From contig JAXLZM010000005.1 of assembly GCA_046350855.1 (NCBI GenBank), positions 9,331 to 73,330 of the forward strand: a DNA stretch of 64,000 nt. Reading direction: 5' to 3'. The notes under the pieces are model-generated. The model made no database searches. It saw only the letters and a list, made by a program, of their open reading frames with translations, and was not told the origin of the DNA. This stretch comes from Candidatus Anderseniibacteriota bacterium (GTDB lineage Bacteria; Patescibacteriota; JAUYIX01). A program made the translations under genes and the position numbers. Shown here one piece after another: positions 26,343 through 54,955 of this stretch (the first letter of the stretch is position 1; every line of letters starts with the position of its first letter).

Positions 26343-26429
26343 CACCCTTCTCCATCCAAGTTAAAACGCGGCCCCCTCGGGACCGCGTTCTTCTTTATGT
26401 ATAGAGTAAGAGGAGCCCCTTAGTTCTGC

Positions 26430-26999
26430 CTAGAACTTAACCTCAGGAACATCGCGCTCTTTGGCGACTTCCTCGGGGGTGCCTTCGATCTGGAAGAACT
26501 CTTCTTTCTTAAAGCCAAACATGCCAGCCAGCATGTTGTTTGGGAACACCTCGAGTTTGGTGTTGTAATCACGCACGGTGCCGTTGTAAAAGCGGCGAGC
26601 AGCTTGGATTTTGTCCTCGGTCATGGAGAGTTCATGCTGTAAGTCCAAAAAGTTTTGATTGGACTTGAGATCAGGATAGGCCTCGGCCACCGCAAACAAG
26701 CTCTTGAGGGCATCGGTCAGCATGTTCTCAGCTTTGCCGTGTTCGGCCGGAGTTTTGGCATTGATGGCCATGGCACGGGCTTTGGTGACGTTCTCGAGCA
26801 CACTCGACTCTTGTTTAGCGTAGCCCTTAACGGTCTCCATCATGTTGGGGATGAGGTTGTAGCGGCGCTTGAGCTGGACATCGATCCCACTCCAGGCATC
26901 ACGCACCTGATTACGCAGCGAGATCAGTCGGTTGTAGACCGCGATCACAAAAATCGCCAAGACAATGAGGATACCGAGGATAATCCAAAGGATAAGCAT
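26430..26999 (-). CDS. lemA: LemA family protein
   Basis: N-terminal TM helix, then NRLISLRNQVRDAWSGIDVQLKRRYNLIPNMMETVKGYA (the LemA signature). Start set at the internal ATG. Confidence 0.8.
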   Translation of the reverse strand: MLILWIILGILIVLAIFVIAVYNRLISLRNQVRDAWSGIDVQLKRRYNLIPNMMETVKGYAKQESSVLENVTKARAMAINAKTPAEHGKAENMLTDALKSLFAVAEAYPDLKSNQNFLDLQHELSMTEDKIQAARRFYNGTVRDYNTKLEVFPNNMLAGMFGFKKEEFFQIEGTPEEVAKERDVPEVKF

Positions 27000-27101: not shown

Positions 27102-28043
27102 ATGCCCAGGGCACACAAGGCTACGCGCCATGCTTCGCGCCGGTTACTCGGCCTCGATTTTGGGGCGCACTCACTCAAACTTGCCGAGGTAGAACACGGA
27201 CCGCTCGGTCCGGTGATCAAGACTTTTGGGGTGGCACCCTACGAGACGGACGGATCCGGTCGAGCTGATTTGGTTAAAACGCTCGAGGACCTCTTGCGCT
27301 CGGCACGTGTCACGACGCGGGAGGCCATCTTGACCGTGCCCGAGACGGACGCCTGCATCATCGATACCGGACACACACCCGATCAACTGCGCAGCAAGCT
27401 TGACCCGCGCCTTGCCGCGGTAGCGGTCTGCTGGCCGGTTGGGGAGCGTCTACTGACCTTGCCACGCTGGATCTATGATTTTTATGAGTCGATCATTACA
27501 ACTGCCGGGCTGTCATTGGGTGGTGTACAACATGTTTCTTCTGTGCTCGGTCGCAGTGTGACGGACCGGGGCCGAGCTGCCGTGCTCGACCTAGGGGCCG
27601 AATCCACCGGCTGGTACGTCTATGATCATGGGCAGCTGGTCCAGCGCGCGACGCTGCCGTACGGCGGCGAGGCTCTGACCAACGCTCTGGCTCTCGCCCA
27701 CGGTTGGACCCGTGAGCACGCCGAGCAACACAAGCGTAAACTGAGCGGTGACCCGCACCTCTGGCCCGATGAGACTCGCCTGGTCTTGCAAACCTTTTTG
27801 GAGCGTTGGTGGTCCGATCTGCATCAGTATCTGGCAGAACAACCGGCCCACCTCACCCAGGTTACACTCGTGGGTGGGGGAGCGCGATCGGCGCCACTAC
27901 GAGAGTTTGTGTTCGGCCAGCTCGGTTTGTTACCGCAAGAGTGGCAACTACCCGTGAGTGCGCACGTGGCGGAGCCGTTGCGTCCCTATCTGGACCCGAG
28001 TTTGCACCTGTTGGCCAATAGCTTGTCGCACCTGGTATACTAG
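27102..28043 (+). CDS. Actin-like ATPase domain protein, PilM/FtsA-like
   Basis: N-terminal LLGLDFGAHSLKLAEV phosphate-1 motif of the ASKHA superfamily. Size and pattern resemble type IV pilus PilM. Confidence 0.45.
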   Translation: MPRAHKATRHASRRLLGLDFGAHSLKLAEVEHGPLGPVIKTFGVAPYETDGSGRADLVKTLEDLLRSARVTTREAILTVPETDACIIDTGHTPDQLRSKLDPRLAAVAVCWPVGERLLTLPRWIYDFYESIITTAGLSLGGVQHVSSVLGRSVTDRGRAAVLDLGAESTGWYVYDHGQLVQRATLPYGGEALTNALALAHGWTREHAEQHKRKLSGDPHLWPDETRLVLQTFLERWWSDLHQYLAEQPAHLTQVTLVGGGARSAPLREFVFGQLGLLPQEWQLPVSAHVAEPLRPYLDPSLHLLANSLSHLVY

Positions 28044-28572: not shown

Positions 28573-29607
28573 ATGAAAAACAACCCACGTCTTAAAGTAG
28601 CGGCAAGCATTTTAGCCCTTTTGACCATTCTGGTTGGTTCAGGTCTTGTGTATGTCGGTCTACAACAAAACGGCACGCCGCTTCCGACGACTTCGGTCGG
28701 AACGGTTACAACGACGCAAGTGGCAAAGAGTGCTCCGGTCGAGACAAACCCGGGTAACGCTGCGGTTACACAGACAAATCAAAATGGGGCACAACCTGCG
28801 TCAACGGTAGCAGTGAGTCAGATAGCCGACGAGATGAAGGTTCTGCCAGCCGTAACGACGATAGGAGCAGCTAGTACACTGAGCCTTCGGGCGTTGCTGG
28901 GCGAAGGGCTTCAATTGGCCACGCCCAATCACACCTATGCAGTTAGTGCGGGAGAACTTGGCTCGTGGATTAATCCGGATGGTCTAACTTGGAATGACGC
29001 GATGATCCAAAAAAAGATTCGCGGGATCGCGCGTGAGCAAGATCGTGCCGCCATGCCCACAAAGGTCATCGGCAATACCGACGAGATCGTTGAACAGGGA
29101 ACGACCGGTCTCAAAGTTGATCAAGACGCTGCCTATGAGATCGTCGTTAAAGCGCTTTTGACTGGACTGACCAATCGCAACCTCACGATCCCAACCGCCA
29201 TAACGCAACCCGAGCGTGTAGCAGTTTCTTCGAGCGCTGCGCCGACCATTACGACCGGCAAGCAAATCGTTGTCGTTTTGGCCGAACAACGTCTGTATGC
29301 TTGGAATAATGGTCATCTCGACAAAAGTTATCTGATCTCGTCTGGATTGACCGGGCCAACGCCACTCGGAGATTTTGCCATCCAGACTCGTTACCCCGTT
29401 GGCTGTATGTCGGGGCCGGGCTACAACCTCTGCAATATTCACTGGATCCAATACTTTACCTCGGCCGGCCACTCGTTTCATGAAAAATGGTGGAACGAGA
29501 TTTACGGTCGACCCTCGAGCCACGGGTGCATCAACATGACTTACGAGGCCTCACACTGGCTCTGGGATTGGGCGACCTACGGGACTCCCGTGCACATCGT
29601 CAATTAG
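28573..29607 (+). CDS. L,D-transpeptidase (YkuD domain) with N-terminal TM anchor
   Basis: Catalytic SSHGCINM motif in the C-terminal domain. Confidence 0.75.
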   Translation: MKNNPRLKVAASILALLTILVGSGLVYVGLQQNGTPLPTTSVGTVTTTQVAKSAPVETNPGNAAVTQTNQNGAQPASTVAVSQIADEMKVLPAVTTIGAASTLSLRALLGEGLQLATPNHTYAVSAGELGSWINPDGLTWNDAMIQKKIRGIAREQDRAAMPTKVIGNTDEIVEQGTTGLKVDQDAAYEIVVKALLTGLTNRNLTIPTAITQPERVAVSSSAAPTITTGKQIVVVLAEQRLYAWNNGHLDKSYLISSGLTGPTPLGDFAIQTRYPVGCMSGPGYNLCNIHWIQYFTSAGHSFHEKWWNEIYGRPSSHGCINMTYEASHWLWDWATYGTPVHIVN

Positions 29608-29683
29608 TTGGCGGAACCAATCCGCTGGCAAAAATCCGAGTGACCAGGTAGGGTGCGCCTGGATCTTTTAGAGGAGAATCGCC

Positions 29684-30124
29684 ATGTCTGGGTATCCAAC
29701 CAACCTCGTGCGTCACGCACACTTTGCTTCCGTGGCAGGCTATTTAACGGAGGACAACTTTCCGGTGGTTCTGCCACTGGAAGAACATCCCGACTACCGT
29801 CTCATCAACCCGGGCGCCGTGTCTACTGCCGCGATCTTGGAGCAGATGCAGGCAGAACGGCAACGCGCGCCTTCGCTGTACGAGCTGATCACCTGGGCCG
29901 TCGAGCATCCCGAGGCTGGACTCAAGCAGTGGGTGATCGCTTTGGGTCAGTCTATCCCTGGCGAAAATAAGAATCGCGGCTACCCGTGCGCGCGACCCGA
30001 TCGGCGCGGCATGCGTGATCTGGCCTGCGCGTGGGAGCGTCCCATTGGCCGACCGTGGGGCGCGGAGGATCTGTTCTTGGTTGTGCAGGAGCCGCCTCCC
30101 GGATTCAAACTCACCTTTGCGTGA
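29684..30124 (+). CDS. Paralog of the DGR target protein (no TR-matching VR)
   Basis: RAPSLYELITWAVEHPEAGLKQWVIALGQS aligns with the target's RPATLYELLVWAAKNPLEGTQYWVVALEQY. Its C-terminal region has no DNA match to the TR. Confidence 0.55.
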   Translation: MSGYPTNLVRHAHFASVAGYLTEDNFPVVLPLEEHPDYRLINPGAVSTAAILEQMQAERQRAPSLYELITWAVEHPEAGLKQWVIALGQSIPGENKNRGYPCARPDRRGMRDLACAWERPIGRPWGAEDLFLVVQEPPPGFKLTFA

Positions 30125-30299
30125 GAGTTGTAGTGCTACTAGTGGGCTCGATCTCTGATCGAGCCCCTCTTTTTGTGCAAGTTGACAAAAGAGCCTTTTT
30201 AGTGTAAGGTGTGTGTTTGCTCTTTAACTGGTACGTCTAGAACCCGTGGCATGGTGCTGTGGGTTGTCGGACAAGCCAAGTACCAAGGAGAACACTCAA

Positions 30300-30971
30300 A
30301 TGGCAAAGGCCAAGACCGCAAAGAAGAAGTCGGAGACGGCTTCTGCGATCGGTGTGTACGCCAAGATCTGGATCGCGATCGAGGCAGCCGTGCTCGCCAA
30401 GGGCGGCACGTACAACGACCTTTACTCGCTCAGCGAGACCAAGGACGCCACCCTGATCAACAAGTTCGCGGAACTCGTGGTCACCTCCAAGAATGGCGCC
30501 AAGAAGGTTGCCGATAAGGTCGTCGACGTGATGGCCGGTTACCTCCAGCGCCTGACCGTTGCCTGCAACTTCTCGTACGTGTGGGACGGCATCACGGAGG
30601 CTCGCTTCCCGATGCCGACCAAGCCCGTGAGTGAGAAGCTCGAGTACGTGGTCTACTCCATCAAGCAGGCCATGAACCGCGCTGAAATCATCGCTGCCAT
30701 GGCTGCCGAGGGACTGCGGCCCGCCACCCTGTACGAACTGCTGGTCTGGGCTGCCAAGAACCCGCTCGAAGGCACTCAGTACTGGGTGGTTGCTCTTGAG
30801 CAGTACTTCACGGATTCCGGCGGCAGCCTCGACTTCGCCTACATCAACCCCTATGGCTACGGCAGGCGCGAGCTCGACTACGGCTGGATCAACCGCCTCA
30901 GCGATCGGTGGAGCGCCGACGGTCGTTTTCTCGCCGTCCGCAAGTCGAGCGACGAGCCCTTGGCCACTTAG
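30300..30971 (+). CDS. DGR target (variable) protein with C-terminal VR
   Basis: AAGGAG 8 nt upstream of the ATG at 30300. The C-terminal 144 nt equal the TR except at TR adenines. Confidence 0.8.
   Translation: MAKAKTAKKKSETASAIGVYAKIWIAIEAAVLAKGGTYNDLYSLSETKDATLINKFAELVVTSKNGAKKVADKVVDVMAGYLQRLTVACNFSYVWDGITEARFPMPTKPVSEKLEYVVYSIKQAMNRAEIIAAMAAEGLRPATLYELLVWAAKNPLEGTQYWVVALEQYFTDSGGSLDFAYINPYGYGRRELDYGWINRLSDRWSADGRFLAVRKSSDEPLAT
30804..30947 (+). repeat. DGR variable repeat (VR)
   Basis: 144-nt match to 31278..31421 with 21 differences, every one at a TR adenine. Confidence 0.85.
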
Positions 30972-31277
30972 TTCCTTGGAACTCATAGAGACCACCTGGT
31001 CTCTTGGTTCCCGCCCTCGGAAGACACATGTCTTCCGAGGGTATTTTTTATCTGCTACTATTTTTTGGGATCGCGACTAGTCAGGCTACAGCTTGACCAA
31101 TCAAAATCTCGGTTCATTCTAGGCCAGGATCCCGTCGGTCAAGACTTACGGGAGCGTGCTTGCAGTGAGCCAAATAAAACATGACTTGGTGTAGTTAGTT
31201 GGAGAGCTTGCAGCTCCAAACATAGATTCAGTCGGGAGATATTCAACCGACGGTGACACGGATGGCTTTCTACACAC

Positions 31278-31421
31278 AACTTCACGGATTCCGACGGCAA
31301 CCTCAACTTCGCCTACATCAACCCCAATGGCAACGGCAGGCGCAAGCTCAACTACAACTGGATCAACCACCTCAGCAATCAGTGGAACACCGACAATCGT
31401 TTTCTCGCCGTCCGCAAGAAA
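31278..31421 (+). repeat. DGR template repeat (TR)
   Basis: Invariant A-rich copy (AAC codons) of the VR. Lies between the target gene and avd/RT. Confidence 0.85.
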
Positions 31422-31432
31422 TGTTTTATCTA

Positions 31433-31852
31433 CTATGAGGGCCCGTAACCAAACGTTGCGGGCTTTTTAGTAGCCGATTTTTGCCATCCGCCCAGCATGC
31501 GTCCTACTTCAGCAAGCGGCGTACTGATATGTGCATATTTTTTGTGATCAATCAATTTGAGTTCCCACGCAATTTGTAAAAAGAATTTGAGTGTATCAAG
31601 TGTGCTGCTTGCTGCGCGTATAAGGTCTGCTTTACGCTTTGGGCTGGCAAAACAGGCCTGCAATAATCGAGTAATTAAATCTAAAAAAAGAGTCTCGATC
31701 CGTCCGCCAATTCCTTGGTGTGCTAGCCGTGGTAAGTTTGGCAGCGTTCCATACCAGGTTTTATATGCTAATGATGCACGTTGTAGAATTGGCGCATCTG
31801 GAGATGGCTGGGGGGGGGTATTCCAAGCACTATGAAACGGTTGCTGAACCAT
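31433..31852 (-). CDS. avd: Avd-like accessory variability determinant (four-helix-bundle protein)
   Basis: ASSTLDTLKFFLQIAWELKLIDHKKYAHISTPLAEVGRMLGGWQKS matches the four-helix-bundle / 23S-rRNA-IVS protein family used as DGR Avd. It is on the opposite strand to the TR and RT. Confidence 0.6.
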   Translation of the reverse strand: MVQQPFHSAWNTPPQPSPDAPILQRASLAYKTWYGTLPNLPRLAHQGIGGRIETLFLDLITRLLQACFASPKRKADLIRAASSTLDTLKFFLQIAWELKLIDHKKYAHISTPLAEVGRMLGGWQKSATKKPATFGYGPS

Positions 31853-32830
31853 ACGTTTGAGCAGGCTATATCACTTGAGAATTTACTGCTAGCTTGGCAG
31901 GAGTTTGCTACTGAAAAGCGTTATAAGCTGGACGTGGCCCATTTTAGTTTGAGGTTATTTGAAAATGTTCAGCAGTTGCAAAAGGAGCTTGAGGATGCCT
32001 CGTATCAGCACGGTGGGTATTATCGGTTCCGAGTGTGCGATCCAAAACCACGTGTAATTCATAAAGCAACTGTGCGCGATCGACTGTTACATCACGCATT
32101 GTATCGCGTGCTCTATCCATTTTTTGAGGATACGTTTTGCAGCGACGTGTTTTCTTCTCTCAAAAATAGGGGCGCTCATGCGGCACTCTCTCGTTTTGCG
32201 CATTTATACAATAGGGTAAGTCATAATAGTACGCGGACTTGCTGGGTCCTAAAATGCGATATCGCAAAGTTTTTTGACACAATTGATCACGAGATTCTTA
32301 AAAAACTACTCGAGGCTAGAGTCGAGGACAAAAAGCTACGTGTGCTCTTAAGCACGGTTATTGATAGTTTTTCGGTCCTACCTGGTAAAGGTCTACCGCT
32401 CGGCAACTTAACTTCACAATTGTTCTGCAATATTTATTTAAGTCACTTCGACAACTTTGTTAAACATTCGGTGCGTGCAAAGACCTATATTCGTTACGCA
32501 GACGATTTTGTAGTTATGTCGGATCGACGTGATTTTTTAGAGACACTTATTCCAAAGTTTGCAGATTTTCTGCAAAAAGAACTTAGACTCTCGCTGCATC
32601 CGCGCAAAGTGTCAATCAGCACAGTCGCATCAGGTGTCGACTTTTTGGGGTGGGTGCATTTTCCACATCACCGAGTCTTAAGGACCAAGACAAAAAATCG
32701 TCTACTGCGTCATGTCGCGATCTCTCCTCATACACCAACGATTGCATCATATCGAGGCTTACTAAAGCATGGTCATGCTAGACGCATTGAGCAAAAGCTT
32801 GCCTCGATTGAACTCTTTGGCAGGCTGTAA
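31832..32830 (+). CDS. DGR reverse transcriptase
   Basis: RT motifs VLKCDIAKFFDTIDH, LPLGNLTSQLFCNIYL (the DGR-specific SQ..N motif), YIRYADDFVV (YxDD) and GVDFLGW. Confidence 0.9.
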   Translation: MKRLLNHTFEQAISLENLLLAWQEFATEKRYKLDVAHFSLRLFENVQQLQKELEDASYQHGGYYRFRVCDPKPRVIHKATVRDRLLHHALYRVLYPFFEDTFCSDVFSSLKNRGAHAALSRFAHLYNRVSHNSTRTCWVLKCDIAKFFDTIDHEILKKLLEARVEDKKLRVLLSTVIDSFSVLPGKGLPLGNLTSQLFCNIYLSHFDNFVKHSVRAKTYIRYADDFVVMSDRRDFLETLIPKFADFLQKELRLSLHPRKVSISTVASGVDFLGWVHFPHHRVLRTKTKNRLLRHVAISPHTPTIASYRGLLKHGHARRIEQKLASIELFGRL

Positions 32831-32869
32831 AAAACAATTGAAAAAACCGCTCAAAACGGCTAGCATCGG

Positions 32870-34978
32870 TTGGTTATGAGCCGTGTGGTTCTGCCAAAAA
32901 ATCAGGCTAAAACGCGGGTTACAAAGCTGCATGAACTGATCAACAAAGAGCGCTACAACGTGCACGTGCTCGATCGCTCGACCATGTCCGAGGCGGCCCT
33001 CGACTCGCTTAAAAAAGAGCTGTTTAATTTGGAGCAGGCCTATCCGGATCTCGTGACGCCCGACTCGCCGACCCAGCGCGTGGCGGGTAAACCCTTGCCA
33101 GCGTTTACTAAGGTTCGGCAGCCGGTGCGGATACTCTCACTCAACGACGCGTTTAGTTTAGAGGATCTGCAGGAGTGGGAGACCCGTCTTAAAAAGGTAG
33201 AACCGCGCGGAGACTACTCGTATTTTTGTGAACTCAAAATCGACGGGCTCGACATCGTGCTCAAGTACGAGGACGGCATGTTTGTGCAGGGTGCCACGCG
33301 CGGGGATGGACAAGTGGGAGAGGATGTCACCCAAAACTTACGAACCATCGATGCGATTCCGCTGCGACTTGATGTAGAAGCCTTCGAGAAAAAGTTCAAA
33401 CGTAAGTTACCGCGTACAGTCTACGTGCAAGGTGAGATTTATTTGCCGATCAAAGAGTTTGAACGCATCAACGCGGAGCAAAAAGCCAAGGGCGGTACGC
33501 TCTATGCCAACCCGCGCAACACCGCCGCGGGGTCGATTCGGCAACTGGATGCCAAATTGGTGGCTGACCGTCGACTCTCTATTTTTATTTTCAATATTTT
33601 GACGGACTTGGGTCAGCGTACGCACGAGGAGCTGCACGAGATGGCGTTTACCCTGGGTTTGCCGGTGGAACCGCACAGCAAACTGTTTAAATCGATCGAG
33701 GCGGTGGATGCGTATCTCAAAGAGTGGGACAAAAAGCGCAAGGGCTTGCGCTACCAAACGGATGGGGCGGTGGTGCAAGTAAATGATGCGCGTTTGTTTG
33801 CCACACTGGGCGTGGTTGGTAAGGCGCCACGTGGCGCTATGGCCTACAAATTTGCTGCAGAAGAAGCGACCACAAAAGTGCGCGAGATTATGATCTCTGT
33901 TGGTCGTACCGGTGCCCTCACCCCGATCGCGGTCATGGATCCGGTGCTCGTGGCAGGTACGACGGTCTCGCGCGCCTCGATGCACAACGAGGACGAAGTG
34001 CGCCGCCTCGACGTGCGGGTCGGTGACACGGTCATCATCCGTAAAGCGGGGGATATTATTCCGGAAGTGGTGCGCGTGCTCAAAGAGTTGCGACCGGCCA
34101 ACGTCAAAGGTGACAAAAAACAATTTACGATGCCCAAGACCTGTCCAATGTGCGGGGGCAAGGTGGTCAGGCGTACGGGCGAGGCGGCGCACTACTGCGC
34201 CAATCCAAAATGCTTTGCGATCGACCGTGAGCGCGTGATCCATATGATTTACGCCTTTGATATTTATTTTGTCGGGCCCAAGCTGATCGACAAATTGTTT
34301 GATGCAGAACTGATCCGCGATGCCGGCGACATCTTTAGCCTCAAAGTGGGTGATTATGAAGGCTTGCCAAACTTTGGCGAAGTATCCGCGCGCCGTGCGT
34401 ATGACGCAGTCGCCGCAAAAAAGAAAATCGAACTCGCTCGCTTGCTCTGGGGGCTCGGTATCAGACACGTGGGCGGGGAGACCGCGACCGACCTAGCTCG
34501 TCTGATCGTTGCGATGTGGCACAAGCGCGCAAACGGTAAAACCAAAAGCGGTTCTGCCGGACCAATGCTCTCCGACCTGATCGACTTTTTGCCTTCGGTC
34601 ACGCTCGAGGGCTGGATGAACACCGAAGGCATCGGCGATGTGGTCGCCAAAAGCTTGCAGGCGTATTTTGCCAACAAAGAGAATCTCAAATTCCTCAAAA
34701 AACTGCAGGCGGCGGGGGTTGCGATTGTTCTGCCAAAGCGTCAAAAAACAAAGCTGGCGGGCAAGACCTTTGTACTGACCGGTACGCTCGAAAAATTCTC
34801 GCGCGAGGTGGCCAAGCAAAAGATCGAAGACTTGGGCGGCTCGGTAGCCAGCAGCGTTTCGAGCCACACGGACTATGTAGTGGTTGGGGCAGAGCCGGGT
34901 TCAAAAGCTAAAAAGGCTAAAGAATTGGGCGTCAAAACTCTCACGGAAGCGCAATTTGTTACCATGCTCGGGTCATGA
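32870..34978 (+). CDS. ligA: NAD-dependent DNA ligase
   Basis: KxDG adenylation motif (ELKIDGLDIV), Zn finger CPMCGGKVVR...C, HhH and C-terminal BRCT. 702 aa. Confidence 0.9.
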   Translation: MVMSRVVLPKNQAKTRVTKLHELINKERYNVHVLDRSTMSEAALDSLKKELFNLEQAYPDLVTPDSPTQRVAGKPLPAFTKVRQPVRILSLNDAFSLEDLQEWETRLKKVEPRGDYSYFCELKIDGLDIVLKYEDGMFVQGATRGDGQVGEDVTQNLRTIDAIPLRLDVEAFEKKFKRKLPRTVYVQGEIYLPIKEFERINAEQKAKGGTLYANPRNTAAGSIRQLDAKLVADRRLSIFIFNILTDLGQRTHEELHEMAFTLGLPVEPHSKLFKSIEAVDAYLKEWDKKRKGLRYQTDGAVVQVNDARLFATLGVVGKAPRGAMAYKFAAEEATTKVREIMISVGRTGALTPIAVMDPVLVAGTTVSRASMHNEDEVRRLDVRVGDTVIIRKAGDIIPEVVRVLKELRPANVKGDKKQFTMPKTCPMCGGKVVRRTGEAAHYCANPKCFAIDRERVIHMIYAFDIYFVGPKLIDKLFDAELIRDAGDIFSLKVGDYEGLPNFGEVSARRAYDAVAAKKKIELARLLWGLGIRHVGGETATDLARLIVAMWHKRANGKTKSGSAGPMLSDLIDFLPSVTLEGWMNTEGIGDVVAKSLQAYFANKENLKFLKKLQAAGVAIVLPKRQKTKLAGKTFVLTGTLEKFSREVAKQKIEDLGGSVASSVSSHTDYVVVGAEPGSKAKKAKELGVKTLTEAQFVTMLGS

Positions 34979-35667: not shown

Positions 35668-35958
35668 ATGGCAATTACCCCGCAGCAGGTAGAACACGTG
35701 GCGACCCTGGCGCGTATTGGACTGACCCCGGAGCAAGTCAAACACTACACCGAGGAATTACGTAAGATTTTGGCCTTTGTGGAACAGCTCAAAGAAGTCG
35801 ACACTACCGATGTGCCGGAGACCTCGCACGTGACGGGACTGAATAACGTCACGCGTCCCGATGCGACGTTGCCACCCCTCGATCGCGAGACGTTTTTGGA
35901 TGGGGCACCCGCGCACCAAGATGGACAGCTAAAAGTTAAGGGAGTCTTTAGCGCATGA
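35668..35958 (+). CDS. gatC: Asp/Glu-tRNA amidotransferase subunit C
   Basis: 96 aa, ITPQQVEHVATLARIGLTPEQV... Confidence 0.8.
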   Translation: MAITPQQVEHVATLARIGLTPEQVKHYTEELRKILAFVEQLKEVDTTDVPETSHVTGLNNVTRPDATLPPLDRETFLDGAPAHQDGQLKVKGVFSA

Positions 35959-37436
35959 GCGGGGATTTGACGCGTCTGGGGGTGTTGGAGAGTGCGACCG
36001 GGCTTGAGCGGGGTCAGTTTTCTAGTGTCGAGTTGTTACAGGCCTATCAAAAGCGGCGTGCCGAGCTCGATCCCAAAGTCGCAGCTTTTTTACAGACTTT
36101 GGATGAACCAGCCCTCGAGCAGGCCAAGCACGTGGACCAACGCCGCGCCAAAGGGGATCGCTTACCCTTGTTGGCCGGAGTACCGATCGCGGTTAAAGAC
36201 AACTTTAATGTGCTTGGCTCCGAGACGACCTGCGGTAGCAAGATTCTTAAGGGCTACGTCTCGCCCTACGACGCCACCGCCGTTGCTAAACTCAAGCAAG
36301 CCGGTGCGATTATCGTAGGCAAAACCAATTTGGATGAATTTGCCATGGGTTCCTCGACCGAGAACTCAGCCTTTAAACCCACCAAAAATCCCTGGGACCT
36401 GACGCGGGTGCCGGGTGGTTCATCCGGTGGAAGTGCCGCGGCGGTAGCGGCTGATTTGTGTGCGGCCGCTTTGGGCTCCGACACGGGCGGCTCGGTGCGC
36501 CAGCCAGCGGCTCTGACCGGAACGGTCGGACTCAAGCCCACCTACGGACGGATCAGTCGCTACGGGCTCTTATCGTTGGCCTCGAGCTTAGACGTCGTTG
36601 GCACACTGACCAAAACGGTCGGCGATGCGGCGCTCTTACTCCAAACTATAGCCGGCGAGGATCCACATGACGCCACCTGCCACCGAGAGTATCCGCCCGA
36701 GTATCTCAACCTTTTAACCGCCGCCTCGGTCAAGGGACTGCGCATCGGGCTACCTAAAGAGTATTTTTCACAAGGGCTCGATCCGGCGGTCGAGGAGCAG
36801 GTCCGGTCGGCGGCCAAGGTACTCGAGCAGGCCGGGGCAAAACTTGTCGAAGTCTCTTTGCCGCACTCCAAATACGCTCTCGCTACCTACTACATTATTT
36901 TGCCCTGCGAGGCTTCCTCCAACTTGGCCCGCTACGATGGTATCCGCTACGGCGCCTCGGCTATGCGCGAGGGTGGTTCTGCCAAGGACTTGGTACAGGT
37001 GTATATGCAGTCTCGTGCGCGTGGTTTTGGGGCAGAACCAATCCGCCGCATCATGCTCGGCACCTACGCGCTCTCATCCGGGTACTACGACGCGTACTAC
37101 CGCCGTGCGCAAAAAGTCCGCACCCTGGTCCGCCGCGACTTTTTGCAAGCCTTTAAAAAAGTGGATCTGCTCCTGACCCCGACCGCGCCAACTACCGCCT
37201 TTAGGCTTGGCGAAAAAAAGCACGACCCCTTAGCCATGTACCTCAACGATATTTTAACGGTGGCGGTTAATGTGGCCGGTGTGCCCGCTCTCTCACTGCC
37301 CTGTGGCTTTGCGGGGGGCTTGCCGGTCGGCCTGCAGTTGATCGCCCCAGACCTCAACGAGGAGGCTCTCTTTAAAGCTGGTCACGTCTACCAGAGCCAG
37401 ACCAATTGGCATACTAAAAAACCCGCTCTACACTAA
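35955..37436 (+). CDS. gatA: Asp/Glu-tRNA amidotransferase subunit A
   Basis: Amidase signature GGSSGGSAAAVA. ATGA-coupled to gatC. Confidence 0.9.
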   Translation: MSGDLTRLGVLESATGLERGQFSSVELLQAYQKRRAELDPKVAAFLQTLDEPALEQAKHVDQRRAKGDRLPLLAGVPIAVKDNFNVLGSETTCGSKILKGYVSPYDATAVAKLKQAGAIIVGKTNLDEFAMGSSTENSAFKPTKNPWDLTRVPGGSSGGSAAAVAADLCAAALGSDTGGSVRQPAALTGTVGLKPTYGRISRYGLLSLASSLDVVGTLTKTVGDAALLLQTIAGEDPHDATCHREYPPEYLNLLTAASVKGLRIGLPKEYFSQGLDPAVEEQVRSAAKVLEQAGAKLVEVSLPHSKYALATYYIILPCEASSNLARYDGIRYGASAMREGGSAKDLVQVYMQSRARGFGAEPIRRIMLGTYALSSGYYDAYYRRAQKVRTLVRRDFLQAFKKVDLLLTPTAPTTAFRLGEKKHDPLAMYLNDILTVAVNVAGVPALSLPCGFAGGLPVGLQLIAPDLNEEALFKAGHVYQSQTNWHTKKPALH

Positions 37437-37463
37437 TTGGCAGAACCACTAACCGCGTAGCAT

Positions 37464-40620: not shown

Positions 40621-40697
40621 TGGCGGGGCAGACGGGATTCGAACCCGCGGTCTCCTCCGTGACAGGGAGGCGCGTTAGGCCACTGCGCTACTGCCCC
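40621..40697 (-). tRNA. tRNA-Asp (anticodon GTC)
   Basis: GGGGCAGTAGCGCAGTGGCCTAACGCGCCTCCCTGTCACGGAGGAGACCGCGGGTTCGAATCCCGTCTGCCCCGCCA on the minus strand. Confidence 0.85.
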
Positions 40698-41477: not shown

Positions 41478-41505
41478 GATACAAAAACAGCCGCCCTCAG
41501 GCGGC
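41475..41505 (-). terminator. Rho-independent terminator (minus strand) after the tRNA pair
   Basis: gccgcc-ctca-ggcggc hairpin with a T-rich run on the minus-strand reading. Confidence 0.5.
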
Positions 41506-41516
41506 GGCCTTACTAT

Positions 41517-41591
41517 TGGTTGCGGGGGCGGGACTTGAACCCGCGACCTCCAGGTTATGAGCCTGGCGAGCTGCCACTGCTCCACCCCGCG
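41517..41591 (-). tRNA. Initiator tRNA-fMet (anticodon CAT)
   Basis: CGCGGGGTGGAGCAGTGGCAGCTCGCCAGGCTCATAACCTGGAGGTCGCGGGTTCAAGTCCCGCCCCCGCAACCA. C1:A72 mispair, typical of bacterial initiators. Confidence 0.75.
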
Positions 41592-41618
41592 TCGACCAAT
41601 TTTTTATCCTTTCCCCGA

Positions 41619-41693
41619 TGGTAGCGGGGCCGGGGATCGAACCCGGGACCTTGGGCTTATGAGTCCCACGCTCTACCAACTGAGCTACCCCGC
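41619..41693 (-). tRNA. tRNA with CAT anticodon (elongator Met or Ile2)
   Basis: GGCGGGGTAGCTCAGTTGGTAGAGCGTGGGACTCATAAGCCCAAGGTCCCGGGTTCGATCCCCGGCCCCGCTACCA. Confidence 0.75.
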
Positions 41694-41825
41694 CACAAAT
41701 CCCGGACGCGAGGACTCTAGCATTATTGGCCTGACAAAGCAATAAAAACGGCTTTACTGCTTTGCCACTCGCTTGACGGGGTGGTTCATCCGGCGTAGCC
41801 ATACGGATACGTCGCTCTTTGGGAG

Positions 41826-42467
41826 GTGCATATGAAGTCTCTGGTGGCCTTGATCGCCTCACTGGTGCTCGGTGCAACGGGTCGCGCTGCCGAAAAATCG
41901 GAGTCGCCGTTGCCCAAGCACGGACCAGTCATGGTGCAGCTGCAGCAGTTTACGATGCTCGAGGGTGTGACGACGACCCTCATCGTTATCACGATTCGTG
42001 ATGCCGAAAAGCTCTCGGACGATGAGTACAACCGGATCTTCGATTTTTATGCGCACCGTCACATCGCCAAGTGGCACGAGGACAATCCCGGTCACGACCA
42101 GTGCGCGGCTAAAGCGATTCTGGGGTCGCGTCGAGTAGTGCATGGTAAAGAGGAAGGGTTCTTTGATGCACCGATCGGCATCTTGCTGCAATGTCGGACT
42201 CCTGAGTCGGCAGAACCGACCACGCCCCCGCCGTCTCCGCAACACGAGCCAAATCCAACGTTCAATCTAGAACCACTGCCCGCGACCTCTGCGTCCGCGG
42301 GCTTTTTTTGTTCAACGGTTCAGCCAAAGAAAAACGCTCGACTCCCAAAAGGAAATCGAGCGTTGCGGTCTAGCAGTCATCCTGAGTCTCGAGCTCGCTT
42401 GCGATCCAGGCGTTATCGAAAGCCCGGATATAGAGATACGTGCGGTTGGCTGATCGCGCCAACGTGA
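41826..42467 (+). CDS. Hypothetical secreted protein (3' end uncertain)
   Basis: Signal peptide MKSLVALIASLVLGATGRAAE. An intrinsic-terminator-like hairpin plus T7 sits inside the last ~180 nt of the ORF, and the tail is Arg-rich and non-protein-like. Confidence 0.45.
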   Translation: MHMKSLVALIASLVLGATGRAAEKSESPLPKHGPVMVQLQQFTMLEGVTTTLIVITIRDAEKLSDDEYNRIFDFYAHRHIAKWHEDNPGHDQCAAKAILGSRRVVHGKEEGFFDAPIGILLQCRTPESAEPTTPPPSPQHEPNPTFNLEPLPATSASAGFFCSTVQPKKNARLPKGNRALRSSSHPESRARLRSRRYRKPGYRDTCGWLIAPT

Positions 42468-43055: not shown

Positions 43056-44285
43056 GTGTGCTATCGTATCTCTCTTATGAACCTCCTCGTTGCCTCGATC
43101 ATCGCTGTTGCGATCGTGCTTGCTGCCGGGATTTTTGCCTGGTCCCGGCGTCGGCCAGGTGTCTCTGCCAATGGAGAAACTACGGAGATGGTAGCTGCTC
43201 AAGCGGCCCAACAAGCGCACGTCGCCCAGCAAATGTTGCAGGCCATGCAGACCACCCAGGCCGAACTTGCCCGTCAGCGCGACAGCTTGCAGCAAGCCTT
43301 AGCTCATCAGCGTGAGACTACGACCGCTGACCAAGCACGTTTGCGCGAGGAATTGCGAAAGTCGCTCGGTGATAACCAACAGGTCTTGCAGCAGCGTTTG
43401 TCCGAGGCTAACCAGACCATCAACGTGCGCCTCGGCCAGGCTGCCAAGATGTTTAATGAGATCAACCGCGGACTGGGAACGGTCTCGGAGTTCTCCAAGC
43501 AGCTCACCAACTTGCGCGATGTGTTTCAATCGCCCAAATTGCGCGGCAATATTGGTGAGGAGATTCTCAAGCAGTTGCTCGAACAGGTTCTGCCGACCAG
43601 CCATTTTGCCATGCAGTTTAAGTTTAGGGAGGGGCAAGTGGTGGATGCCATCGTCAAAACCAAGCAGGGATTGATCCCGATCGACAGTAAGTTTCCGCTC
43701 GAGAATTATCGGGCGCTGCAGCAGCGCGAGGTGGATGAACCCACGGCACGCCGGGCTTTTGTGCGCGACGTCAAAAAGCATATCGACGCCATCCGCACTA
43801 AATATATTTTGCCGGAGCAGGGGACGGTGGATTTTGCCGTGATGTACGTCCCGAGCGAGGCGATTTACTACGAGATCGTACAAAATTCGCAGGAGCTACT
43901 GGATCACGCCAGCGAACACAAAGTCTATTTAGTCTCGCCCAACACGTTTTATTATTTCTTAAAGGTGATTTTGATCGGGCTTGAGGGTGCGCGTATGGAA
44001 GAGCTCTCTCGGCAGGTGCTCTCGTTGCTGCGGACGGTGCAAAAAGATGCCGGTGCCTTTGGTGAGGAGTTGAGTGTCATGACACGTCATATTACCAACG
44101 CTAAAAATGCGAGTGATCGCGTGACCGGTAAGTTTGAACGCCTTGCCGGTACACTTGATAATGTTCGGTTGTTGGATACACCTGGTGCAAAACCGCCGGT
44201 GGTCGAGGCGCAGGCAGCCCAGGCCAAGCCGAGCGTTGATGCTACGCAGCAAGAGCTGATCGTCGACTTGCCGGACAATGGCTAA
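43056..44285 (+). CDS. rmuC: DNA recombination protein RmuC
   Basis: N-terminal TM helix, long coiled coil, and a C-terminal RmuC nuclease-like domain (VDFAVMYVPSEAIYYEI). Confidence 0.75.
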   Translation: MCYRISLMNLLVASIIAVAIVLAAGIFAWSRRRPGVSANGETTEMVAAQAAQQAHVAQQMLQAMQTTQAELARQRDSLQQALAHQRETTTADQARLREELRKSLGDNQQVLQQRLSEANQTINVRLGQAAKMFNEINRGLGTVSEFSKQLTNLRDVFQSPKLRGNIGEEILKQLLEQVLPTSHFAMQFKFREGQVVDAIVKTKQGLIPIDSKFPLENYRALQQREVDEPTARRAFVRDVKKHIDAIRTKYILPEQGTVDFAVMYVPSEAIYYEIVQNSQELLDHASEHKVYLVSPNTFYYFLKVILIGLEGARMEELSRQVLSLLRTVQKDAGAFGEELSVMTRHITNAKNASDRVTGKFERLAGTLDNVRLLDTPGAKPPVVEAQAAQAKPSVDATQQELIVDLPDNG

Positions 44286-47200
44286 GACGACCGCGGTTCA
44301 GCAAGCGATCGAGCTGCCGCAGGTCGTTGATGCCAAATCGACACAAGATCTAACGCCGGCGCAGAGTAGTGCGGTCACACACGGAGCTGGGCCATTGCTG
44401 ATTATTGCTGGGGCAGGCAGCGGCAAAACCATGGTCATCACGCGGCGACTGGGGTATCTCCTTACCGTCGGGCTCAAAAATCCCAAGGGTTCAACCGAAA
44501 AATTGACCGGCGACCAGATTTTAGCCGTGACCTTTAGCAACAAGGCTACTGAGGAGATGGAAGAACGCCTCGACAAGCTCATGCCGGTTGGGTTTGACGA
44601 GCCCTGGATCAATACCTTTCATGCTTTTGGTGAGCGGGTGTTGCGTGAGAACGCGCTGGCCCTCGGCCTCGATCCGGGCTTTACCGTGCTGACTCCGGCG
44701 CAGCAGCATGTCTTGCTCCGTCGTAACCTCGATCAGTTTGAACTGGACTTTTACCGGCCCTCTGGTAACCCGACCAAGTTTATTAGCGCGCTGATTCAGC
44801 ATTTTAGCCGAGCCAAAGATGAGGCGGTCTCACCGGCCGAGTACGTCAAGTGGGCCGAAGGTGCCGTCGAGCGGGCGGCTAAAGCGCCGGGTTCTGCCGA
44901 TGAGAGAGCCGCAGCACAGGAGGAGGCAGCCAGACAACTCGAAGTCGCCAAGGCCTACCAAGCCTACGAAAAAGTCCTGGTGCAGGAAGGTGTCTTAGAT
45001 GTTGCGGACTTAATCACTAAGACGCTCGAACTTTTTACCCGTCGGCCATCCGTCCTGGCCAAGTATCGTAGGCAATTTAAGGCGATCTTGGTGGATGAGT
45101 TTCAGGACACTAACACTGCCCAGTACGAGTTAATCAAATTGTTGGCGCATCCGGGCAATAATCTTGTCGTGGTTGCCGATGATGATCAGGCCATCTATCG
45201 CTGGCGCGGGGCCTCGGTCGCAAACGTGCTGCAGTTTATGTCTGATTTTCCTAAGGCCAAACAGGTCGCCTTGATCGATAACTTTCGCTCGCGCCAGCCA
45301 ATACTCGATGCGGCGTATCGCGTAGTTCAGCATAACAATCCGGATCGCCTGGAGCACAAACTCAAAATCAATAAAAAACTGACGGCCGTCCGCGGAGGAG
45401 GGGACGCCGGTAACGCACGCTCAAGCATTCCGGTGCACTACCAATCGCAAACCCTCGAGCACGAGGTCATGCATCTCACGCAGTTGCTGATCGAGCGTAA
45501 CCAAGCCGGCTTGTCGTGGTCTGAGATGGCTGTGCTTGTACGCTCCAATGCGGCCGCCGAGCCGCTCATTGCCGGTTTGGCGCAAGCCCACGTGCCCTTC
45601 TCCTTTATGGCGAGCAAAGGCCTGTTTGCCCGACCGGAGATTTTAGATTTGCTGGCTTGGCTCCGTGTTGTTGCCGACTACCACGACTCAACCTCGCTCT
45701 ATCGTTTGCTCTCCTCTGACATTTGGCGCATTCCGTCCCTCGAACTCATCGCCCTGATGCATTATGCAAGGCGCTACAGCCAAACGTTGTTTGAGGCGGT
45801 TCGGGCGGCTGCTCAAAACACTACTACTGCTCCGGATGAACAAGACGCTCAACCCACCCCAGTGATCGATCCGGGCACACGCGCGCGGTTACTCAAATTT
45901 CTCAAAGTGCACGAGCAGCAGGTCCAACTCAGCAGCACCAAGAGCGCCGGCGCCATGTTGCTAGCCTATCTCTCCGCGACCAAATTGCTCGACGTCTTAG
46001 AAAAACGCCAAACCGCGGACGACACCGACAAGATTCTCAACATCAATCAGCTGCTTAAGCTCATTCTCGACTTTGAGCGCGATGCCAAGGACAAATCTGC
46101 CCGAGCTTTTTTGGAATTTTACGAACTCCTGCTCGCGGCGGGGGAGAGCCCAGCGCCCGCAGACATCGAGGCGCATCCCGATGCCGTGCGCATTTTGACC
46201 GTGCACGCTTCTAAAGGCTTGGAGTTCTCACTGGTTGCGCTCTTCCACGCAGTTGAACAGCAATTTCCCTCCCGCGCGCGACGTGACCCGATCGCTTTAC
46301 CGCTAGAGCTAGTTGAGCGCCACGAGCACCTCGGTCTCCCCGACGAAAAAACCGCGCATCTCGCAGAAGAACGCCGACTCTTTTATGTTGCCTGTACCCG
46401 TGCACGTGATGAGCTGATCGTCACGACCTCGCTCGACGACGGCGGGGTACGCAAACGTAAGCCTTCGCGCTTTATCGCCGAGGCCGGCATCGCAACCCAA
46501 GCTACACCCGAGCAAGCCTTGATCAGGTTAGTTCAGCCAAAGACGGAAGCGGAGAGCGACCCGAGTACAAAACGCAAAATAAAATTACCGCTGCCCAAAC
46601 GGTTTAGCTACACGCAGCTGACCGTGTTTGATACCTGCCCACTCCAGTACAAGTACGCCCACATCTATAAGATTCCGTCGCTCGGGAGCCACGTGTTCTC
46701 ATATGGTAAGAGTCTGCATGAGACCATGGCCGCTTTTTATCGTGAGCTCGGTACGGCTGAACCCACGGTAAAAAGTAATCCTGGTTGCGACCGCCTCTTG
46801 GAGCTACTCGACCACTACTGGATCAACGAGTGGTACCAGTCGCCGGCCCATGAGCGGCGTCGCAAGACCGAGGCTCAGGTGGCTCTCAAAAAGTGGTTTG
46901 AGACAGAGGGCCAGTCCGCCGTACCCGCCTTTTGGGTTGAACAAGATTTTACGCTCAAAATCGGGCAATACTCGCTGCATGGTCGCATCGACCGGGCCGA
47001 CAAACTTCCAGATGGCACACTTGAGATCATCGACTATAAAACCGGCCAACTCAAAAAAGAAGCCACCAAAAAAGAGCGGGAAAAACGCGAAAACCAACTA
47101 GGCATCTACGCCCTGGCCGCGCAAAAAACCTTTAAGCTTAAAGCGAGCAAGTTGACCTGGATCTACCTCGACGCTGGACAAAAAGTTTCTACAATGTTCC

Positions 47201-47352
47201 CGCCCGAGCGTTTGGCCGCTCTTGAGCAAGAGATCGATACACGCATCAAAAGTATTTTGGGCAGTGAGTTCATCCCGACACCAGGGTTCCACTGCAAGTT
47301 TTGTGACTTTAAGAACATCTGCGAAGTCGGCCAAGCCAGCGGCTACGTCTAA
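44278..47352 (+). CDS. UvrD/PcrA-family helicase fused to a C-terminal PD-(D/E)xK nuclease with Cys cluster (AddA/Cas4-like)
   Basis: GAGSGKT Walker A, UvrD motifs (TFHAFGERVL, VDEFQDTN, a TVHASKGLEF-type motif VI), and a C-terminal nuclease with CKFCDFKNIC. 1024 aa. Confidence 0.8.
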   Translation: MAKTTAVQQAIELPQVVDAKSTQDLTPAQSSAVTHGAGPLLIIAGAGSGKTMVITRRLGYLLTVGLKNPKGSTEKLTGDQILAVTFSNKATEEMEERLDKLMPVGFDEPWINTFHAFGERVLRENALALGLDPGFTVLTPAQQHVLLRRNLDQFELDFYRPSGNPTKFISALIQHFSRAKDEAVSPAEYVKWAEGAVERAAKAPGSADERAAAQEEAARQLEVAKAYQAYEKVLVQEGVLDVADLITKTLELFTRRPSVLAKYRRQFKAILVDEFQDTNTAQYELIKLLAHPGNNLVVVADDDQAIYRWRGASVANVLQFMSDFPKAKQVALIDNFRSRQPILDAAYRVVQHNNPDRLEHKLKINKKLTAVRGGGDAGNARSSIPVHYQSQTLEHEVMHLTQLLIERNQAGLSWSEMAVLVRSNAAAEPLIAGLAQAHVPFSFMASKGLFARPEILDLLAWLRVVADYHDSTSLYRLLSSDIWRIPSLELIALMHYARRYSQTLFEAVRAAAQNTTTAPDEQDAQPTPVIDPGTRARLLKFLKVHEQQVQLSSTKSAGAMLLAYLSATKLLDVLEKRQTADDTDKILNINQLLKLILDFERDAKDKSARAFLEFYELLLAAGESPAPADIEAHPDAVRILTVHASKGLEFSLVALFHAVEQQFPSRARRDPIALPLELVERHEHLGLPDEKTAHLAEERRLFYVACTRARDELIVTTSLDDGGVRKRKPSRFIAEAGIATQATPEQALIRLVQPKTEAESDPSTKRKIKLPLPKRFSYTQLTVFDTCPLQYKYAHIYKIPSLGSHVFSYGKSLHETMAAFYRELGTAEPTVKSNPGCDRLLELLDHYWINEWYQSPAHERRRKTEAQVALKKWFETEGQSAVPAFWVEQDFTLKIGQYSLHGRIDRADKLPDGTLEIIDYKTGQLKKEATKKEREKRENQLGIYALAAQKTFKLKASKLTWIYLDAGQKVSTMFPPERLAALEQEIDTRIKSILGSEFIPTPGFHCKFCDFKNICEVGQASGYV

Positions 47353-49391: not shown

Positions 49392-50275
49392 CCGGCAGTA
49401 TCGGGGTGGTTACGCTCAACTTAGCGCGCATCGGGTACTTAGCTAAGAGCAAGGAGGACTTTTTTGCTCGAGTGGGACGACTGATGGATCTGGCCAAAGA
49501 CTCGCTCGAACTCAAACGCAAAGTGGTGGCCGAGAACATCGAGCGGGGCCTCTTGCCCTTTACCAAACGCTACTTACCGAGTCTGCACAACCACTTTGCC
49601 ACCATCGGGATCAACGGTGCCAATGAGGCCTGCCTCAACTTTTTGGGTAAAAACCTTGCAGACCCTGAGTCGACAGCACTCATCACCGAGCTCCTCGGCT
49701 ACATGCGCACGCGACTCGCGGATTACCAAGAAAAAACCGGTAACCTGTACAACTTAGAAGCCACGCCGGCCGAGGGCACAACCTATCGCTTTGCCAAAGA
49801 GGATCAAAAGCGTTTTCCGGGGATCGTGCAGGCGGGTACCGATATGGCGCCCTACTACACCAATTCAACACATCTCCCGGTCGACTTTACCGACGATCCA
49901 CTCGGCGCACTCGATCATCAGGATCCACTCCAGACTAAGTACACGGGCGGTACGGTTCTCCATCTCTTTTTGGGTGAACGTGTTCACGATTGGCAAACCT
50001 GCCGCGCTTTTGTGCGCAAGGTGGCCGAACATTACAAACTGCCCTACTTTACGATCACGCCTACCTTTAGCATTTGTCCGACGCATGGTTACTTGTCCGG
50101 CGAACAGTCGCACTGTTCGATCTGTAATGCAACCTGTGAGATCTGGTCACGGATTGTGGGCTACTTTAGACCGGTCGAACAATGGAATAAAGGCAAAAAA
50201 AGTGAGTATGTGGATCGCCTCGAGTACTCCGCTCAAAAAGCGACCGCGCAAAAAACGACAGAGGTTGCTCGATGA
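49307..50275 (+). CDS. nrdD: NrdD C-terminal ORF segment (continues the conserved sequence in another frame)
   Basis: MCRRLQLDLRELRSRGGGLFG...SIGVVTLNLARIG, then a zinc ribbon C...CxxC and the glycyl-radical motif RIVGYF. Confidence 0.8.
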   Translation: MRSMCRRLQLDLRELRSRGGGLFGSAEMTGSIGVVTLNLARIGYLAKSKEDFFARVGRLMDLAKDSLELKRKVVAENIERGLLPFTKRYLPSLHNHFATIGINGANEACLNFLGKNLADPESTALITELLGYMRTRLADYQEKTGNLYNLEATPAEGTTYRFAKEDQKRFPGIVQAGTDMAPYYTNSTHLPVDFTDDPLGALDHQDPLQTKYTGGTVLHLFLGERVHDWQTCRAFVRKVAEHYKLPYFTITPTFSICPTHGYLSGEQSHCSICNATCEIWSRIVGYFRPVEQWNKGKKSEYVDRLEYSAQKATAQKTTEVAR

Positions 50276-53196: not shown

Positions 53197-53226
53197 CCGG
53201 ATGAACAGCACCTGCGAGGTTCAACC

Positions 53227-54918: not shown

Positions 54919-54955
54919 GTGTGGTCAAAAAAATATCGCCACGGGCCAAGGCGCC

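Follow-up and report, generated by a model that had tools for sequence, protein, structure and literature searches.

A degenerate octamer enriched across the genomes of a Patescibacteria subclade: a candidate DNA-uptake or self-recognition sequence

A 64,000-nt stretch of the genome of a Candidatus Anderseniibacteriota bacterium (Patescibacteriota; GenBank assembly GCA_046350855.1, contig JAXLZM010000005.1, positions 9,331 to 73,330 of the forward strand; here called the window) carries a short DNA word, GGNNGAAC, on both strands. A string that had been flagged directly after the stop codon of gatA is one copy of this clade-specific, genome-wide word, and we regard this description as a whole as close to certain. 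The word is kept at the DNA level, via synonymous codon choice and the first free bases after genes. By analogy with known systems, GGNNGAAC may be a DNA-uptake or self-recognition sequence for natural transformation, a reading that we put forward tentatively and weigh below against its alternatives.

For comparison, we used syntenic loci from nine other genomes. Four of the loci (L004, L005, L010, and L011) are pieces of one genome, on an 868-kb contig, and are 100% identical where they overlap; this genome, relative B, encodes a GyrB 87% and a GatA 77% identical to those of the window.

Definition of the word and its upkeep at the DNA level

The initial annotation had pointed to an over-represented 9-mer with about 9 copies. 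Counting both strands, we found 12 copies of this 9-mer, GGCAGAACC, where dinucleotide-preserving shuffles yield 0.69 ± 0.80 (maximum 4); the coordinates first given for it were 1–6 nt off. The repeated string is real, but it had been under-described, since the actual unit is the degenerate GGNNGAAC, with 150 copies in the window (83 on the plus and 67 on the minus strand, ∼1 per 427 nt). The expected count is 40.3 ± 6.1 (maximum 58) in dinucleotide-preserving shuffles, 19.8 under an order-2 Markov model, and 31–37 from word or base composition, which amounts to a 4–8-fold excess. The core 8-mer GGCAGAAC, the commonest of the 16 versions of the word, is present in 26 copies (11 plus, 15 minus), where 1.2–2.9 are expected under Markov orders 0–4, an excess of 10–20-fold. 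In an unbiased scan of the window over all 6-base patterns with gaps of 0–6, GTTCNNCC/GGNNGAAC scored highest (z = 21), followed by A/T runs. The field of sites can be given as a single feature.

1-64000, both strands: field of 150 copies of GGNNGAAC, including 26 of GGCAGAAC

The word is asymmetric, not being its own reverse complement, and has a free 2-nt centre. All six specified bases are sharp; any single substitution brings the count down to about expectation. GAAC alone is not enriched (458 copies, 490 expected), and GG is found four bases upstream in one third of the GAAC sites. The commonest centres are CA (26 copies) and AT (18), followed by CT, CC, and TC (13 each), and the flanks show weak preferences for C at −2, C or T at −1, and C at +1. 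Further 8-mers enriched relative to the Markov model are GGATGAAC, GGCTGAAC, GGGTGAAC, and GGCCGAAC. Among longer strings, TTGGCRGAACC has 5 copies against 0.08 expected. The 12-mer GAACCAATCCGC, described earlier as a second shared extension, is indeed found twice against 0.01 expected, at 29614–29625 in the spacer after ykuD and at 37035–37046 inside gatA; beyond the 12-mer, these two copies have no more similarity.

Outside the 8-mer, the information is at most 0.65 bit per position in every set, and at most 0.2 bit when the window and L004 are pooled; base-composition tables likewise place the flanks near background. A small dispersed repeat, one of the meanings initially considered, is not supported, since no more than 8 positions carry sequence information and the flanks do not rise above background. 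The word resembles repetitive extragenic palindromic (REP) sequences, bacterial interspersed mosaic elements (BIMEs), and miniature inverted-repeat transposable elements (MITEs) in having many copies per genome, some of them between genes, but differs from them in that it has no unit beyond 8 nt, no inverted-repeat structure, and no flank similarity, and is 91% intragenic. A search of the window against Rfam gave only six tRNAs that reach the gathering score and no match for the word. With uninformative flanks and only tRNAs in Rfam, a REP- or MITE-type repeat and an RNA element were both rejected. A literature search for the string returned primers only.

Most copies (136 of 150, 91%) lie inside open reading frames (ORFs). 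We therefore shuffled synonymous codons within each gene, which keeps the protein sequence and the codon usage. The coding sequence of the window contains 128 copies of GGNNGAAC, compared with 34.5 ± 5.2 (maximum 48) in the shuffles (z = 18), and 23 copies of GGCAGAAC, compared with 2.0 ± 1.4. Relative B behaves in the same way, with 51 copies against 15.2 ± 3.4 in L004 and 53 against 14.5 ± 3.3 in L010 (z ∼11–12). As the synonymous-codon shuffles fall far below the observed counts, the signal resides at the level of DNA and not of protein or codon usage. When the copies are sorted by reading frame and orientation, four of the six classes are enriched 3.6–5.4-fold and a fifth 1.8-fold, which bears out the earlier remark that copies lie within ORFs in different frames. 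The sixth class, the one requiring an NGA codon, is not enriched. The copies are evenly distributed along the window, with 4 to 14 per 4 kb.

These results leave a practically negligible probability that the word is a by-product of amino-acid composition, codon usage, or base composition, or an assembly artefact. The commonest frame, xxG GNN GAA Cxx, is also codon-favoured and supplies 13.6 of the 34.2 copies that the shuffles hold over all six classes; the observed counts nevertheless exceed both the synonymous-codon and the dinucleotide shuffles, and the orthologous genes of five motif-poor relatives are not enriched. On the same grounds, an origin from protein sequence or codon choice was rejected. 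The enrichment recurs in five independent assembly sources (the metagenome-assembled genome (MAG) of the window, Logan, JGI, ENA, and two other NCBI MAGs), and it is therefore no artefact.

A-run words are also over-represented in the window (CAAAAAAG with 27 copies and the 12-mer CAAAAAAGAGCG with 5), and they exceed synonymous shuffles as well (CAAAAA, 150 against 82).

Distribution among relatives and along the DNA

In the merged 41 kb of relative B, there are 109 copies of GGNNGAAC (56 plus, 53 minus; 2.66 per kb), including 32 of GGCAGAAC, and an unbiased gapped scan again places GGNNGAAC first (z = 13.6–13.8). The word is also in excess in L007 (GatA 74% identical to that of the window; 20 copies, 4.4 expected), in L012 (GyrB 89% identical; 23 copies, 5.9 expected), and in the 3 kb of L006 (GatA 78% identical; 6 copies, 1.4 expected), where CTCGAG scores higher. 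All four closer relatives are thus enriched, and GGNNGAAC is the top-scoring pattern in the three that are large enough to rank (relative B, L007, and L012). In L002, L003, L008, L009, and L013, whose GatA is 67–74% or whose GyrB is 81–83% identical and whose gene order is the same, the word is at background. Enrichment in four close relatives and background counts in five make the word a property of one subclade of Candidatus Andersenbacteria.

The window and L004 share ∼72–75% DNA identity. Of the aligned window sites, 18 of 38 (47%) are kept as GGNNGAAC at the same position and in the same orientation in L004, compared with 22% for other xxNNxxxx words. Possible dialects of the word in motif-poor genomes were rejected: CAAGAT and ACGAAC in L009 and GGTNNNACC, GTTAAC, and TATCGA in L013 reach only z ∼2–5 against synonymous shuffles, and GGTNNNACC and CAAGAT score in motif-rich genomes too. 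These candidates are therefore ordinary codon-context noise. A contig search with LigA found only an unrelated Psychroflexus locus, an exact-match search for the GatA protein gave no hit, and the one locus that a lineage-specific protein retrieved from metagenomes is identical to L004.

The longest gap without the word (29859–32887, with 3037 nt between the site starts at 29851 and 32888) would hold ∼7 copies at mean density. It coincides with the cassette of a diversity-generating retroelement (DGR) that is absent from the syntenic loci of the relatives and has no copy of GGNNGAAC in ∼3 kb. The DGR is complete and spans 30246–32830, between ykuD and ligA. Its parts and a second motif-poor stretch are as follows.

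30805-30944: variable repeat of the DGR, at the 3′ end of a plus-strand ORF (30246-30971)
31279-31418: template repeat of the DGR, 89% identical to the variable repeat, with A in the template at all 16 mismatches
31433-31852, minus strand: bAvd-like gene of the DGR
31832-32830, plus strand: reverse transcriptase of the DGR
12551-17330: motif-poor stretch with 2 copies in 4.8 kb, mostly small ORFs without Pfam matches

The 12551–17330 stretch may be foreign DNA. The word is scarce at 55.6–58.3 kb as well. A restriction-modification island in L012 is also poor in the word, with 2 copies in 4 kb. Since the DGR and this island are poor in the word, it is the resident core DNA that gains and keeps it, whereas new arrivals lack it. 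Next to gyrB, L012, the closest relative by GyrB, encodes Type ISP restriction enzyme-like fragments (ResIII helicase and Type_ISP_C) and an N6/N4 DNA methyltransferase with a PD-(D/E)XK protein; a heliorhodopsin is found there as well, and the GyrB of L012 carries an intein. These features occupy L012 coordinates 262–4279, 5617–8253, and 10340–13643.

The copies divide between the strands as 83/67 in the window and 56/53 in the 41 kb of relative B, with no regional switch. Across 105 kb of these two genomes, whose origin and terminus are not placed, neither relative B nor any of the window's 4-kb bins shows a strand skew. No dnaA or dnaN lies beside gyrB, whose neighbours are pheST and a cell-wall-binding protein, and so no origin is evident in the window. 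Given the lack of skew in any bin, we rejected a polarity of the type known for Chi, FtsK-orienting polar sequences (KOPS), or architecture-imparting sequences (AIMS).

In L004, the copies are spaced more evenly than at random (coefficient of variation (CV) 0.68, a value that none of 2000 simulations reached). Neither the merged 41 kb of relative B (CV 0.88, p = 0.12) nor the window (CV 1.02, inflated by the motif-poor gaps) shows a significant effect of this kind. Orientation switches between neighbouring copies exceed chance, at 88 of 149 steps in the window (p = 0.02) and at 69 of 108 in relative B (p = 0.005). When each strand is considered alone, label permutation gives less even spacing than that observed in every one of four tests (p 0.01–0.19). 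The alternation was noticed post hoc and is a modest effect. Among adjacent pairs within 60 nt in the window, only 4 are convergent and 3 divergent.

Copies beside stop codons

Fourteen copies of GGNNGAAC are not fully inside ORFs. Four of these 14 are sense copies that start exactly 2 nt after a stop codon (offset +3), at 12315 (minus), 29610, 37439, and 53199 (plus). The chance of four copies at one pre-set offset is 8.7e-7, or ∼3.5e-5 after Bonferroni correction over ∼40 offsets. A fifth post-stop copy, at 61049, follows a doubtful ORF, and a sixth, at 26423 (minus), overlaps the TAG of lemA.

37434-37447, plus strand: the flagged copy; stop TAA of the amidase gene gatA (35955-37436), tt, GGCAGAAC(C), i.e. 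TAAttGGCAGAACC
29605-29618, plus strand: stop TAG of ykuD (L,D-transpeptidase), tt, GGCGGAAC(C), i.e. TAGttGGCGGAACC
12315-12327, minus strand: stop TAA of a 79-codon ORF, tt, GGCAGAAC, i.e. TAAttGGCAGAAC, 24 nt upstream of a tRNA gene
26423-26432, minus strand: stop TAG of lemA (26430-26432), overlapping the first G of GGCAGAAC, i.e. TAGGCAGAAC
53194-53226: stop TAA of pheS, cc, GGATGAAC, i.e. TAAccGGATGAAC, and 12 nt on an inverted GTTCAACC before the start of pheT
61044-61057, plus strand: TAAttGGCGGAACC, after a doubtful ORF of ∼35 codons

The copies first annotated after the stops of gatA and ykuD, and overlapping that of lemA, are all in place. The one assigned to a small ORF after secE exists too, but at 61044–61057 rather than 61039, and its ORF is doubtful: the TAA at 61044, before a copy of GGCGGAAC, interrupts a frame that is otherwise open for ∼87 codons (60939–61200). 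The copies at 12315 (minus) and at 53199, after pheS, are additional to those of the initial annotation. Within the 64 kb, the 9-mer lies above background frequency, and the suspected bias toward stop codons is non-random. In relative B, secE is followed by a gene for a 149-residue protein, of which no counterpart could be detected at 60939–61200 of the window.

The sequence at the flagged position reads ...CACTAAttGGCAGAACCactaacc, directly after the GatA stop. Three of the post-stop copies have the 13-mer TAATTGGCRGAAC in common, and the word stands in the phase of the commonest coding class (TAA NNG GNN GAA C). The spacer that holds the flagged copy is 27 nt long, whereas among seven relatives it measures only 4–10 nt in L004, L006, L002, and L003 and 7 nt in L009. 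The orthologous YkuD spacer reads TAAttgaaaaaacc in L004 and TAGttggcggaacc in the window. Because the two differ by point changes, the post-stop copies arose by substitution after the gene. The C terminus of the LemA protein is conserved in relatives, in which the motif is absent at this place. By inspection, the arms of the two inverted copies between pheS and pheT would pair at 7 of 8 positions.

The relatives do not share the placement after stops. In relative B and others, the corresponding genes end without the word even though their proteins have conserved C termini, and no post-stop copy was found among 24 gene ends in L004 or 12 in L007. Truncation of C termini as a source of these copies was rejected, because relatives retain these protein ends and it was in the spacer that the word arose.

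A 3′-end signal, be it for transcription termination, RNA processing, or the context of translation termination, could account for the exact offset of the four sense copies, the two further copies beside stops, and the shared 13-mer. It would cover just 4–6 of the 150 copies, the others being inside genes on either strand, and the placement is not kept in relatives. No terminator-like hairpin with a T-run on the sense strand includes any post-stop copy, on which ground a terminator was rejected. We therefore consider such a signal very improbable, and 3′-end processing or termination, one of the meanings initially listed, is not supported as the general one for a word that is mostly intragenic and occurs in both orientations. 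Our working view is that, as spacers in this genome are very short, the post-stop copies would mark the closest site free of constraint.

Candidate functions of the word

Strand symmetry, presence in nearly all frames, upkeep at the DNA level, clade specificity, partial conservation of sites, and absence from a mobile insertion together lead us to favour an uptake tag, as one possible reading among several. The uptake signal sequences (USS) of Pasteurellaceae and the DNA uptake sequences (DUS) of Neisseriaceae are specific to their clades, occur symmetrically on both strands and in all frames, are evenly spaced, and are depleted in islands. According to the uptake model, fragments bearing the word would be recognized by a DNA receptor belonging to the competence or pilus apparatus, and DNA of relatives would be preferentially taken up and recombined. 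Through the resulting uptake bias, the word would spread within the core genome, while elements that had newly arrived would not acquire it. The few copies 2 nt after stops would then mark the nearest unconstrained bases and not a termination signal. For DUS, one study links establishment to recombination (PMC2397512), and the uptake sequences of Pasteurellaceae are reported to be biased toward gene termini (PMC2346458). Natural transformation dependent on comEC has been demonstrated experimentally in Saccharibacteria, another phylum of the Patescibacteria, and com genes are reported to be conserved across the radiation, in a paper that mentions no uptake specificity (PMC10633639).

Among known systems, GGNNGAAC appears to work most like the DUS (GCCGTCTGAA and its dialects) or the USS (AAGTGCGGT core). 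It is like them in its density (∼1 copy per 0.4–1 kb), its equal use of both strands, and its presence in coding and noncoding DNA and in several frames. Further likenesses are the restriction to one clade, the rarity in recently acquired DNA, the partial conservation of sites between related genomes, a competence gene nearby, and some copies right after genes. It differs in that its six bases are split by a free dinucleotide, in an enrichment of 4–20-fold as opposed to >100-fold, and in copies that do not pair into terminator hairpins. Its host also belongs to a Patescibacteria lineage, where uptake specificity has never been described. As the word misses the length, the enrichment, and the terminator pairs of DUS and USS, and the uptake preference that defines them is here a prediction, we do not file it as a member of either group.

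Three genes of the window bear on the readings considered here.

21277-22023, minus strand: ComF-family (ComFC-like) competence protein with a double zinc ribbon and a phosphoribosyltransferase fold
27102-28043, plus strand: PilM/FtsA-like ATPase, a possible type IV pilus assembly component
44278-47352, plus strand: PcrA/UvrD-like helicase fused to a Cas4-like PD-(D/E)XK nuclease

The ComF-family assignment is weak in Pfam and reaches E = 9e-23 with the NCBIfam comF model, below the curated cut-off; the PilM-like ATPase gives a weak match in the window, and its orthologues give PilM_2 matches. The helicase-nuclease scores 178 bits against an AddA cut-off of 708 bits and is the sole candidate in the window for a Chi-reading enzyme. 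No addB lies next to it, the upstream gene being rmuC. RecG and RecX are encoded in the window as well as RmuC.

Several observations weigh against an uptake tag. The ComF-family and PilM-like proteins are the only competence functions visible in the 64 kb, in which no comEC, dprA, comEA, pilins, or receptor candidate was seen. USS and DUS are 9–12 nt long and enriched >100-fold, whereas here only six bases are specified and the excess is 4–8-fold (10–20-fold for GGCAGAAC), so that foreign DNA would be only weakly discriminated against. The copies also lack the concentration in inverted pairs or terminators that DUS show. The uptake model does not explain why post-stop copies stand at exactly +3. 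Alternating orientation is, to our knowledge, not a property of uptake sequences; it would be in keeping with reading on single strands. Finally, there is no bias toward gene termini within genes, the deciles being flat.

The initial annotation had also listed an uptake-like sequence and a protein-binding site, and both are compatible with all measurements, with uptake in the lead. In the second case, a DNA-binding or DNA-modifying protein specific to the clade, such as a nucleoid protein or a methyltransferase (orphan or restriction-linked), would target the word, whose density would have been raised by biased repair or selection. Both processes have been proposed for HIP1 (highly iterated palindrome 1, GCGATCGC), the cyanobacterial octamer. 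Like GGNNGAAC, HIP1 is an octamer of ∼1 copy per kb or denser, is lineage specific, has spread by point substitution through genes in all frames, and is of unsettled function; GGNNGAAC differs from it in not being palindromic, in its degenerate centre, and in the phylum of its host. Six sharp positions around a free 2-nt spacer, without symmetry, have the format of a recognition site, and it is only the full word and not GAAC itself that is enriched. The onset between 87% and 83% GyrB identity is abrupt, as if one gene had been gained, and a close relative carries the Type ISP-like and N6/N4 methyltransferase genes next to gyrB. Restriction targets, however, are normally avoided in genomes and not enriched, no DNA methyltransferase was found among the window genes scanned, and the alternative motifs of the motif-poor relatives did not hold up. 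The lack of a palindrome, unlike in HIP1, also speaks against such a target. A Vsr-like conversion signature was rejected: such conversion would selectively deplete a near-cognate variant, and none of the single variants shows this. We regard a binding or modification target as a serious but rather unlikely alternative.

The word could also be read on a single strand, like Chi, by an end-resecting helicase-nuclease that would pass from degradation to RecA loading; self DNA would be protected and motif-poor foreign DNA degraded. Chi (GCTGGTGG for RecBCD of E. coli, AGCGG for AddAB of B. subtilis) is likewise an over-represented asymmetric word of 5–8 nt in the core genome. The enrichment of the present 8-mer (∼7-fold) is similar to that of E. 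coli Chi. The window encodes RmuC, RecG, and RecX along with a UvrD/PcrA-type helicase that has a PD-(D/E)XK nuclease, and the word is absent from the mobile DGR cassette. The alternation of orientation and the hint of regular spacing on each strand would favour one-strand reading from either side of a two-ended break, but the alternation is the modest, post hoc effect described above. Every characterized Chi that we know of is co-oriented with replication (∼60–75%), whereas GGNNGAAC shows no replication-linked strand skew over 64 kb (83/67) or 41 kb (56/53). The helicase-nuclease, PcrA/UvrD-like with a Cas4-type nuclease, is far below the AddA and RecB cut-offs, and no recognizable AddB or RecC, the Chi-reading subunits, is adjacent. 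On balance, a Chi-like role is unlikely.

Further features of the window were noted. The region 59–8785 holds a type IV secretion-like cluster. It comprises a type IV secretion system pilin, three ∼680-residue proteins with bacterial TSP3 repeats, and, at the edge of the window, a P-loop ATPase fragment of the TraG/VirB4 type; Patescibacteria type IV secretion systems have been described as homologous to monoderm conjugation machinery (preprint, 10.1101/2025.01.22.634366). NrdD is split into two overlapping ORFs that match Pfam model positions 1–262 and 260–562 (48123–50275). For PheT (53227–55660), two ORFs are separated by 37 nt, whereas intact PheT has 804–811 residues in relative B and L013. 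Frameshifts, pseudogenes, or assembly indels underlie these splits. The minus strand carries six tRNA genes (12217–12290, 19006–19092, 21165–21257, 40624–40697, and 41520–41694). Some listed ORFs, for example 10087–12258 and 41497–41877, overlap tRNA genes, and such ORF ends are therefore over-extended.

Natural competence, recently shown to operate in Patescibacteria, is the sole way into the genetics of these bacteria (PMC10633639). A clade-specific, strand-symmetric word that is maintained at the DNA level at ∼2.5 copies per kb offers a concrete uptake hypothesis, and comparing the gene content of motif-rich with that of motif-poor sister genomes gives a handle on the responsible protein. 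In practical terms, the word can serve as a marker for binning the clade and for telling core from acquired DNA. The literature that we searched describes uptake sequences for no groups other than Neisseriaceae and Pasteurellaceae and never links them with Patescibacteria. By this analogy, GGNNGAAC might be the first sequence-specific uptake or self-recognition signal outside Proteobacteria, in an uncultured Patescibacteria clade and with a new receptor, a possibility that we consider less likely than not. If the word is an uptake signal, these ultra-small episymbionts would exchange DNA preferentially with their own kind, and adding the word to constructs could make them transformable. Should it prove Chi-like or linked to modification instead, no genome-wide signal of that kind would have been defined in this radiation before.

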